A DNA stretch of 64,000 bases from a virus. Taxonomy: Duplodnaviria > Caudoviricetes. This document shows positions 36,282 to 44,987 of this stretch, piece after piece. Under the pieces are notes generated by a model. That model did not search any database, was not told the origin of the DNA, and saw only the letters and a list, made by a program, of their open reading frames with translations. The stretch's first letter is position 1, and each line of letters begins with the position of its first letter. A program made the translations under genes and the position numbers. Location: IMG/VR virus record IMGVR_UViG_3300019742_000001; one strand, written 5' to 3'.

Positions 36282-36596
36282 TTATTCTCGTTCAAAATCA
36301 ACTATCTTCATTGTAGCTGTCTCATGTCCTTCTAATTGTTCCTTGTATGAATTATATACACCAGAAGTCATCATATTAAATTCACGTGATGATTTACGAC
36401 AATGATACACACTACCACTATAATTGGTGAATATATACTCAGTATCAGTTTCCTCTGTTTCAGTTATACCTGAACTCAGTTTCCAAGAATCACCATCCAG
36501 ATACCCACCTGACCATCCAGATAATACCTTTTGGATTTTACCGTGTTCGGATTCAAACTCAAGAACTACCCACGTATCAGGTATGTATTCTGACAT
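36282..36596 (-). CDS. conserved phage hypothetical protein
   Basis: PDTWVVL...GWSGGYLDGDSWKLSSGI...SGSVY.C. Confidence 0.65.
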   Translation of the reverse strand: MSEYIPDTWVVLEFESEHGKIQKVLSGWSGGYLDGDSWKLSSGITETEETDTEYIFTNYSGSVYHCRKSSREFNMMTSGVYNSYKEQLEGHETATMKIVDFERE

Positions 36597-36612
36597 TGTT
36601 ATATCCTTTAAA

Positions 36613-36688
36613 TGGAGCCGACAACAGGAATCGAACCTGTAACACCCTCATTACAAGTGAGGTACTCTGCCAATTGAGCTATGTCGGC
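36613..36688 (-). tRNA. tRNA-Thr(TGT)
   Basis: Canonical cloverleaf, CCA end. Confidence 0.95.
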
Positions 36689-36691
36689 AAA

Positions 36692-36780
36692 TGGAGGAAG
36701 GTAAGGGATTCGAACCCTTAACGGGTATTACACCGCTACTTGTTTTCAAGACAAGCTCCTCGTCCAACCGGACACCTTCC
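36692..36780 (-). tRNA. tRNA-Ser(TGA)
   Basis: CT TGA AA, long variable arm. Confidence 0.92.
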
Positions 36781-36842
36781 ATTTTCTCTTTAATACTATA
36801 CAACAAAACCTTAATTTTACTTTATACTATGAAAGAAAGTAA

Positions 36843-37660
36843 GGGTGGGTCTGAGATTACGACCCACCTTTGTTAGAACTTTCGTTAGATTATCCGTAGG
36901 GGGCAACCCTTTGGTTCCTAACTTATCCACACATCATTCCAATGTGTATTCCAACGTGACTACCTTTTTTAAAGAGTGGTTTTTCTCTTGTCCTGTAAGT
37001 CTATTCAATACTTTGTCTACCCTAGTGAGTAATTAATTCCCTAAGTGCGACTCCCTATCAACACTCTCCAACTTGCGGTCTTTGAGTGCCCCAATTCACA
37101 ATACATGTTGGGGATTAAGCCACTTTCAACTTACAGCGGGGCCAACTTTGCGTTTACAATATTGGAATTGAACCAATAAATGTCAGATTAGAATTCTGAT
37201 TGACAACCTTTGTCAGATTGAACTATCCATGATGTGTGACCCCTGTGGATTCATAACCTTGCGATTACAAAATACCACACACCATATATCTTTCCCTTTT
37301 GTATCGGTACTCAATGGTTTTTCAAGATTTTGTCTGCCTCCTCACAAAGACACCCAATACCTATCAAACTACGAACCGCCCTTGACACTACTCTCAGACT
37401 ATGTTCATTATCCCTTATCTTTCATAAATGGAATGTTTGGTATGTAGTATTTCGGTACCACCCGAAACTCGTTTAGACCAGTGTTACCCACCTAAACTTT
37501 TTCCTACACATCCGTCATTACTTATGTCCACCTACTACAGTGAACACCCTTTACGGGAAGATGAGACTTGTTTGGTTATCCATTCGAAAATGGCGGGGAA
37601 GTGATAGAACTTACCCCTTTCGTTACGTTTCCGTAATTTATTTGTTGACACCAAACTGCC
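36843..37660 (-). ncRNA. GOLLD-like large noncoding RNA (boundaries approximate)
   Basis: ~800 nt with no credible ORF, dense hairpins, own promoter; 3' part GTGGATAAG..GGAA..ATAATC..AAAG..GTAATCTCAG resembles GOLLD as I recall it. Confidence 0.6.
37152..37223 (-). pseudogene. degenerate tRNA-like element nested in the large ncRNA (anticodon register TCT)
   Basis: D stem TGACAA/TTGTCA, anticodon stem TCAGA/TCTGA, T arm ATTGG-TTCAATT-CCAAT; weak acceptor stem, no CCA. Confidence 0.55.
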
Positions 37661-37664
37661 AATT

Positions 37665-37731
37665 TTATATTTTCAAAGATCGTTCTGTTTCAATGTTTGT
37701 CTACTATAACAACTTGTTCTGTCTTTGTAAA
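37665..37731 (-). promoter_or_regulatory. sigma70 promoter plus boxA-like site
   Basis: TTTACA-N17-TATAGT (37703-37731), then GATCTTTGAAAA (37665-37681). Confidence 0.6.
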
Positions 37732-37752
37732 CCACCTTTTTAATTTTAATTT

Positions 37753-37828
37753 TGGTGCGGGTAGTAGGGTTTGAACCTACGACGTACGATTTAAAAGACC
37801 GTTACTCTACCAACTGAGTTATACCCGC
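37753..37828 (-). tRNA. tRNA-Lys(TTT)
   Basis: Canonical cloverleaf, CCA end. Confidence 0.93.
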
Positions 37829-37839
37829 TCAGTTTTTAA

Positions 37840-37916
37840 TGGTAGGGATGACAGGAATCGAACCTGCATTGTACGAGTTAAAAGCCCGTTGTAAAACCAA
37901 TTTTTACTACATCCCC
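37840..37916 (-). tRNA. tRNA-Lys(TTT), second divergent copy
   Basis: CT TTT AA, CCA end. Confidence 0.88.
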
Positions 37917-38016
37917 ACAGACACATTTGTTTTACGTGTCCGTGGGAGTGTGTTAATCTCTTATCCCAAGAACACGATGAGTTTATCTTGTTTTCGTTTC
38001 ATCGTTAATCTCCTGT

Positions 38017-38304
38017 TTATTTTTTGTCAATAACTAAATTCATTTCTGTAACATATTTTCTTAAAATAACATAAGTTCCAAACTTATGTGTAATATTATA
38101 CTTTTCACTATCCCTTGTCAAGAACCAACTATAAATTTTATAAAGTTCTCTGTAATCGGTGTTTGTCAACTGTCTAACCGACAAATTACTTTCACGGTTG
38201 AATCTAATCGTCAAAACCCAAATATCTGGCAGTTTAGGTCTTGGTGTCTTTGGAAGTGTACCATTAATCGTAAAAAACTTGTATACCCATTCCTTCATAC
38301 TCAC
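38017..38304 (-). CDS. hypothetical protein
   Basis: 95 aa ORF. Confidence 0.5.
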   Translation of the reverse strand: MSMKEWVYKFFTINGTLPKTPRPKLPDIWVLTIRFNRESNLSVRQLTNTDYRELYKIYSWFLTRDSEKYNITHKFGTYVILRKYVTEMNLVIDKK

Positions 38305-39578: not shown

Positions 39579-39655
39579 TGGTGTCCCCGATAGGATTCGA
39601 ACCTATGACTAATAGCTTAGAAGGCTACTGCTCTATTCCGCTGAGCTACGGAGAC
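39579..39655 (-). tRNA. tRNA-Arg(TCT)
   Basis: Canonical cloverleaf, CCA end. Confidence 0.93.
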
Positions 39656-43523: not shown

Positions 43524-43548
43524 ATATTTTTTACTTTTTCAAAAAACA

Positions 43549-43626
43549 TTCAATTGTCAAAGATCAGTGTTTCCGTTGTTTCGTTTAACGTGAGATCATC
43601 TTACCAAATCTCTTTCCTATCGTCAA
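43549..43626 (-). promoter_or_regulatory. sigma70 promoter plus boxA-like site
   Basis: TTGACG-N17-TAAGAT (43598-43626), then GATCTTTGACAATTGAA (43549-43565). Confidence 0.6.
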
Positions 43627-44970: not shown

Positions 44971-44987
44971 TTCAATTTTCAAAGAAC
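44971..44987 (-). promoter_or_regulatory. boxA-like antitermination site
   Basis: GTTCTTTGAAAATTGAA immediately after the terminator U-tract. Confidence 0.6.

Follow-up and report, generated by a model that had tools for sequence, protein, structure and literature searches.

Evidence for a GOLLD RNA gene with a decayed linker tRNA among the tRNA genes of a large uncultured T4-like mat phage

We are highly confident that the minus-strand interval 37688-36844 of the window, by which we mean the entire 64,000-nt stretch of Caudoviricetes DNA analyzed here, encodes a GOLLD RNA of about 845 nt that carries a decayed tRNA in its linker and lies within the tRNA island of a large uncultured T4-like mat phage. 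The RNA is a member of the GOLLD family, its covarying 5′ and 3′ domains are joined by a variable linker, and this linker holds a tRNA-derived cloverleaf. GOLLD is a curated family with 806 reported non-redundant members, in which a 5′ and a 3′ domain form part of one chain (bioRxiv 10.1101/2024.12.08.627333), and its RNAs are found in phages near tRNA islands (bioRxiv 10.1101/2024.12.08.627333; PMC12990946).

Results

Family assignment

The family had originally been named from motif similarity, with an Infernal comparison against the Rfam GOLLD and ROOL models proposed as the check. With the GOLLD model (RF02032), minus-strand positions 36847-37285 scored 183.7 bits (E = 4.4e-50; gathering score 150) in an untruncated alignment that covers model positions 1-416 of 416, so that the call now stands on a full-length match above the curated threshold. 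The 3′ motifs on which it had drawn, GUGGAUAAG, GGAA, AUAAUC, AAAG and GUAAUCUCA, align to invariant or consensus positions of the model (cmscan). ROOL, the other large cage-forming phage RNA near tRNA islands, shares the setting and the size class, but its model gave no match even at E ≤ 1 in the Rfam search of 36780-37760; only the GOLLD and tRNA families were reported at this cutoff, and ROOL is excluded because tRNA was the sole other family. The original prediction had also stated that the lack of both a significant covariance-model hit and covariation among homologs would speak against it; the hit is significant, and covariation is abundant in both halves of the RNA.

The window RNA resembles GOLLD at large in its overall length (about 850 nt), in its conserved, pseudoknot-bearing 3′ core, in having a variable 5′ domain of about 400 nt and in being located within a phage tRNA island. 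Differences were also apparent. The sub-clade to which the window RNA belongs has AAACGCAAAG after the linker, where the Rfam consensus has AAAGCAAAAG, and the carrier, a T4-like microbial-mat phage of about 239 kb, is neither a Lactobacillales prophage nor derived from a marine sample. The score of 183.7 bits is among the lowest GOLLD scores of the sub-clade.

Genomic context

The GOLLD gene is flanked by the 24 tRNA genes of the window, all of which are on the minus strand (ARAGORN). Its upstream neighbor is a tRNA-Lys(UUU) gene (37753-37828, minus strand; ARAGORN and Rfam, 70.8 bits), and 63 nt past its 3′ end lies a tRNA-Ser(UGA) gene (36692-36780, minus strand; ARAGORN and Rfam). The tRNA-Lys(UUU) gene is one of a tandem pair (37753-37828 and 37840-37916) located directly upstream of the GOLLD promoter-like site. 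Elsewhere, the window encodes a ribonucleotide reductase, an NAD-dependent ligase, virion proteins, a Lon-like protease and a UvsX-like recombinase, and its structural protein shows a distant relationship to the structural proteins of T4-like cyanophages. In public data, the sequence occurs in metagenome runs from microbial mats.

Consistent with the earlier statement that the region holds no credible open reading frame, the longest sense-strand ORF between tRNA-Lys and tRNA-Ser comprises 39 amino acids, and across 16 relatives no ORF on either strand keeps its place or its length; a protein-coding reading was therefore rejected. The description of the region as GC-rich helices in an AT-rich genome holds in direction, but the elevation is only modest, with a GC content of 0.39-0.41 compared to 0.30-0.36 in flanking and neighboring coding DNA. 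The whole RNA (852 nt) folds at -228.5 kcal/mol (z = -3.3), and none of 20 dinucleotide shuffles folds as well.

Relatives define a widespread sub-clade

A nucleotide search of an 858-nt region against 50,697 phage records returned no match, and thus no close relative among isolate phages. A motif scan of viral contigs yielded 66 GOLLD loci that are too diverged for BLAST, and a BLAST comparison of the window RNA with these loci gave essentially nothing. Similarly, searching viral contigs through the flanking ORFs (36282-36596 and 38017-38304) and a nearby cytochrome c7 gene led to no confirmed relative. The thymidylate synthase gene located 700 nt downstream, by contrast with these routes, led to two contigs (L067 and L068) that encode a protein 84% identical to that of the window and carry a syntenic GOLLD scoring 177 bits. 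Their RNA is 76% identical to the window RNA over its whole length, with an alignment that runs from about 37690 to about 36844 and flanks on either side that cannot be aligned.

Further members were found with an iterated profile built from this pair, and with a scan for the sub-clade motif, AAACGCAAAG followed by GAAARTGGCTTAAT. In total, viral contigs contributed 18 distinct members of 845-917 nt, all of which pass RF02032 at 176-219 bits, and 15 more were present in genome or metagenome-assembled genome (MAG) contigs assigned to Verrucomicrobiota, Gammaproteobacteria and other Pseudomonadota, Lentisphaerales, Chitinophaga and Novimethylophilus. The latter 15 (on contigs within L146-L162) include several from Verrucomicrobiota MAGs and extend to the isolate assembly of Novimethylophilus kurashikiensis La2-4; possibly they are clues to the hosts, or else mis-binned phage contigs. 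Separately, we observed a group I intron match (64.9 bits) and phage-encoded tmRNA genes (113-127 bits) in the tRNA islands of relatives (L058:12532-12733, L058:5067-5412, L049:7532-7916 and L024:5489-5882).

Extent and domain structure of the RNA

The start of conservation with the relatives places the 5′ end near 37688-37695, upstream of the boundary at 37660 that had originally been proposed and that could not be upheld. The RNA thus spans about 845 nt (37688-36844, minus strand). Across RNAalifold analysis of 16 full-length sequences, 123 consensus pairs were obtained, 103 of which keep pairing through double changes. The 3′ domain (36844-37155, minus strand; RF02032) contains the conserved core and the pseudoknot and ends in the GUAAUCUCA terminal hairpin. 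The pseudoknot pairs (706-714/863-871 of alignment A3) are kept, with double changes in eight of the nine pairs, and the covariation present makes it unlikely that the pseudoknot and core helices fail to form. Just before the linker is the first hairpin of RF02032 (37225-37285, minus strand; model positions 1-61 by cmscan), whose pairs 536-551/557-570 of A3 covary.

The Rfam match spans only this last hairpin before the linker, the linker itself and the 3′ region, and because it leaves the upstream 400 nt uncovered, we tested that part separately. The 5′ domain (37286-37688, minus strand) is about 400 nt long, lies outside the Rfam model and shows homology over its full length in 17 other viral contigs (nhmmer). 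Its conservation extends to the 15 genome or MAG contigs. It was aligned within two subgroups, as the MAFFT alignment across the whole set was poor over the first 350 columns, and the pairs predicted by RNAalifold were compared with controls in which the 3′ partners were moved by 1-3 columns. In subgroup A, which comprises the window and has seven sequences, 69 pairs were predicted, with 91% of cells paired compared to 40-50% for shifted partners, and 40 pairs showed double changes compared to 6-15 in the shifted controls. The corresponding values for the 92 pairs of the other subgroup were 92% versus about 40% of cells paired, and 68 versus 14-28 pairs with double changes. Together, these data show covariation within both subgroups, and we conclude that the 5′ half belongs to the same RNA as a conserved and structured domain, in which short hairpins with tetraloop caps are frequent.

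One candidate helix was discarded. As a closing helix, RNAalifold had joined the 5′-terminal UUCUUU (the boxA-like motif) to an AGRGAA located where the 5′ domain ends; a search for the complementary 5′ strand in 16 members performed no better than shuffled controls, and for this reason we consider the helix unsupported. Within the 3′ domain, the window and L067 are without one hairpin that is present in the other 14 aligned members (A3 columns 815-833). The others have two adjacent hairpins at this place, which corresponds to window positions 36990-37050 and RF02032 positions ~248-264, where 17 model positions are reduced to 1 nt.

Transcription signals and expression

As originally proposed, the RNA appears to have a promoter of its own. 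A consensus scan predicts a promoter-like site at 37731-37703 (minus strand) consisting of TTTACA, a 17-nt spacer and an extended -10 element, TG-TATAGT (10 of 12 positions plus the TG), with a predicted start near 37695. In L067 (4328-4356), the hexamers and their spacing are kept within otherwise diverged flanks. There, about 500 nt of ORF-poor sequence separate the promoter-like site from the GOLLD; the whole interval between tRNA-Lys and GOLLD (L067:3900-4860) comprises about 960 ORF-poor nucleotides that have no Rfam match, and this extra sequence may hold another non-coding RNA.

In stable-RNA operons, an rrn-type boxA is located shortly downstream of the promoter and is bound by NusB/NusE. 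The window RNA carries a boxA-like motif, GATCTTTGAAAA, at its 5′ end (37670-37681, minus strand), approximately 15-25 nt past the predicted start, which we called by comparison with the boxA consensus. It is kept at the 5′ end in all seven members of subgroup A as GTTCTTTG or GUUCUUUG. Three of the four boxA-like matches with at most one mismatch in the window lie on the sense (transcribed) strand of the tRNA island, and the total count of such motifs is at chance (17 versus 16.9 expected). The motif reported in the original prediction is thus present, and its reading as a boxA with a role in antitermination is plausible from the sequence, at a motif frequency no higher than chance. Comparable arrangements occur elsewhere on the minus strand: at 43536-43565, the boxA-like GATCTTTGACAA and GTTTTTTGAAAA follow a promoter-like TTGACG/17/TAAGAT, the site at 43554-43565 heading a tRNA block, and at 44976-44987 an exact GTTCTTTGAAAA comes right after the hairpin that heads the tRNA island.

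No terminator-like site was found in 36400-38200, and read-through into tRNA-Ser and tRNA-Thr is likely because the RNA is not followed by a terminator. Transcription would start from the sigma-70-like promoter at 37731-37703 and probably include the downstream tRNA-Ser and tRNA-Thr, in which case the ends of the GOLLD would be generated when tRNA-processing enzymes cut the flanking tRNAs.

Among RNA runs, none contains this exact sequence. Two metatranscriptome studies of salt marshes yielded RNA-library contigs that align to 36917-37467 at 80-95% identity, with no cover on 37482-37733, and at this level of identity the contigs belong to relatives. They are at most a weak hint that the sub-clade is transcribed and cannot prove transcription, ends or processing of the window copy. 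One of them, from a relative about 84% identical, aligns to either side of the nested tRNA-like element while omitting exactly 37149-37217 (67 nt), with unknown letters in between; it could represent a relative with a different linker.

A degenerate tRNA-like element in the linker

The tRNA-like cloverleaf without CCA that had been drawn at 37152-37223 was recovered by the tRNA model (RF00005) at 37154-37222 on the minus strand, and its description as degenerate proved accurate. The match is marginal (31.3 bits, gathering score 29). Several parts are intact, namely a perfect 5-bp anticodon stem with a 7-nt loop (AUUCUAA, anticodon UCU) that contains U33, a perfect T arm with a consensus T loop, and a 4-bp D stem. 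The acceptor stem, in contrast, retains five of seven pairs, nucleotides 8-9 connecting the acceptor and D stems are deleted, and the sequence continues with AACGC in place of the encoded CCA that is present in all 24 genuine tRNAs of the window. With default settings, ARAGORN did not call the element among these 24 and drew it only at a relaxed threshold.

The element shares at most 60% identity with the phage's own tRNAs, which is the background level, compared to 65-75% with the nested elements of other GOLLDs. These values argue that it was inherited with the GOLLD and not recently copied from the array, and an origin by recent duplication within this phage was accordingly rejected. Pairing in its D stem and its anticodon stem is preserved by changes affecting both strands, and in the D stem the usual GCUC/GAGC is replaced by UGAC/GUCA, a fully compensated change.

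Graded decay of the linker tRNA across the sub-clade

The D arms and T arms of the linker elements of the sub-clade are clearly homologous, and their anticodon and T stems covary across the clade. The RF00005 scores form a graded series. At the upper end are L136 (64.8 bits, anticodon UAG), L129 (61.0 bits, UGU), L058 (10957-11028, 58.8 bits), which has a GCU anticodon on a body with a short variable arm as well as a perfect acceptor stem and CCA, and L144 (2645-2717, 57.7 bits) with the amber-reading anticodon CUA. These are followed by L137 (54.7 bits, UUG), L145 (53.6 bits, UGU), L015 (52.2 bits, UGU in a relaxed ARAGORN call), L039 (51.2 bits, GCA), L044 (2322-2394) and L021 (both 50.5 bits, with an oversized anticodon loop), L134 (43.8 bits), and L139 (35.9 bits), in which the acceptor stem is absent. 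The window element, at 31.3 bits, is next. In L067 and L068 the element is below threshold, a 15-nt deletion having removed the D arm and the anticodon stem being changed on both strands, and in L130, L131, L132, L142 and L006 the linker contains no tRNA element, only a short unrelated hairpin or nothing. At least eight different anticodons occur at the linker position among the relatives. Of the nested elements called by ARAGORN, eight out of nine are without CCA; for free-standing tRNAs, the fractions with CCA at the six best-sampled loci are 24/24, 20/21, 11/11, 18/18, 28/28 and 27/30.

The picture that emerges is of an ancestral linker tRNA with an unconstrained anticodon and an often-kept fold, which can be lost without loss of the GOLLD. 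The nested module descends from a tRNA in the linker of the sub-clade ancestor, and in this phage it has decayed to the point where it no longer resembles the gene of a chargeable tRNA while keeping its cloverleaf fold.

Alternative explanations

A different role for the nested cloverleaf, already raised in the original prediction, would be that of a processing signal, with RNase P and RNase Z cutting at its ends and splitting the GOLLD precursor into halves, with or without release of the tRNA-like piece. The T arm and the acceptor/T-arm stack are features recognized by these two enzymes; in the window element the T arm is perfect and the stack is largely kept, and the nested tRNAs of some relatives have perfect acceptor stems, together with a CCA in L058. 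In the cryo-EM structure, moreover, each of the two GOLLD domains folds on its own (bioRxiv 10.1101/2024.12.08.627333). However, the linker is free of any tRNA-like element in five clade members and the D arm is gone in L067, so that a split at the tRNA site is unnecessary for GOLLD function, and the window copy itself has two mismatches in the acceptor stem and is missing the 8-9 connector. Published models, furthermore, keep the linker tRNA covalently attached. Cleavage of this kind is compatible with GOLLD membership, and on balance we consider it unlikely.

That the element is instead a working tRNA-Arg(UCU) gene, released from the GOLLD transcript and charged, strikes us as highly improbable. 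The score above the gathering threshold, the canonical 7-nt anticodon loop with U33 and the consensus form of the T loop would fit such a gene, but the default ARAGORN settings pass it over, it has neither the CCA encoded by every other tRNA of the window nor nucleotides 8-9 nor a complete acceptor stem, and the anticodon at this position is not conserved among relatives. In addition, the phage already has a good tRNA-Arg(UCU) gene at 39579-39655 (69 bits). Equally hard to sustain is the view that the 845 nt consist of small, independent structured RNAs arranged in a row (a 5′ block, the tRNA-like element and a GOLLD-like 3′ block), for although the Rfam model covers just the 3′ 439 nt, the 5′ block is accompanied by the 3′ block, with order and spacing unchanged, in 16 of the 16 full-length relatives aligned and in most of the genome-contig members, there is neither a terminator nor a promoter of comparable quality between them, and in the literature both domains of GOLLD are part of one chain (bioRxiv 10.1101/2024.12.08.627333).

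Discussion

Our analysis supports a single GOLLD RNA with a tRNA-derived module in the linker between its two domains, and published structures suggest how this RNA might be organized. The GOLLDs solved to date assemble without protein into closed cages, with the linker in the interior and sometimes a tRNA there (bioRxiv 10.1101/2024.12.08.627333; PMC12990946). The env-38 GOLLD from a marine sample (PDB 9MEE) forms a 14-mer cage and the Streptococcus agalactiae GOLLD (PDB 9L0R) a 12-mer (PMC12990946). On the basis of these two structures, we would expect a cage with a tRNA-shaped remnant inside. By homology with the two GOLLDs solved by cryo-EM, the window RNA would self-assemble into a closed, RNA-only cage of approximately 12-14 copies, and the linker, hence the tRNA-shaped module, would point into its interior. 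Such assembly is known for the env-38 and S. agalactiae RNAs only, and the window copy, like that of L067, is without one of the 3′-domain hairpins. Hairpin differences in this part of the 3′ domain accompany different copy numbers in the solved cages (PMC12990946), and the missing hairpin could change or weaken assembly, or may alter the contacts or the copy number of the cage.

A tRNA in the GOLLD linker is itself a published feature (bioRxiv 10.1101/2024.12.08.627333; PMC12990946). According to Morgado et al. 2020, as cited in PMC12990946, a Mycolicibacterium GOLLD contains tRNA-Phe in its J13/15 linker. Judged by that citation, the two cases are alike in that a tRNA-shaped element is located in a single-stranded linker between two domains, but the window element is degenerate, with its 31 bits, no CCA and nucleotides 8-9 missing, and represents one point in an intact-to-lost series within one sub-clade. 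GOLLD and its linker tRNA being already known, the addition made here is a modest one, a graded series of decay in one widespread sub-clade.

What the module does could be framed in terms of shape. It may be kept for its tRNA shape and not for decoding, such that, tethered in the cage, 12-14 tRNA mimics per assembly would dock or titrate a factor that binds tRNA, for instance a host anticodon nuclease, RNase P, the CCA-adding enzyme or the ribosome. The eight or more anticodons, the shortage of CCA among nested elements (eight of nine) and the maintenance of the D, anticodon and T stems through compensatory changes are points that would fit; the module would have to be an optional accessory because five members are without it. 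We regard this idea as a long shot. GOLLD expression rises during phage-induced lysis (bioRxiv 10.1101/2024.12.08.627333; PMC12990946).

The series of linker tRNAs that ranges from intact-looking through degraded and D-armless to absent provides comparative material on the role of the tRNA in the cage, be it cargo, bait or relic, and does not by itself give the answer. For the phage, an 845-nt gene-free gap in its tRNA island can now be annotated as a GOLLD RNA. For the family, the known range is extended to a T4-like mat phage and to a sub-clade of more than 30 members in phages of Verrucomicrobiota, Proteobacteria and others.
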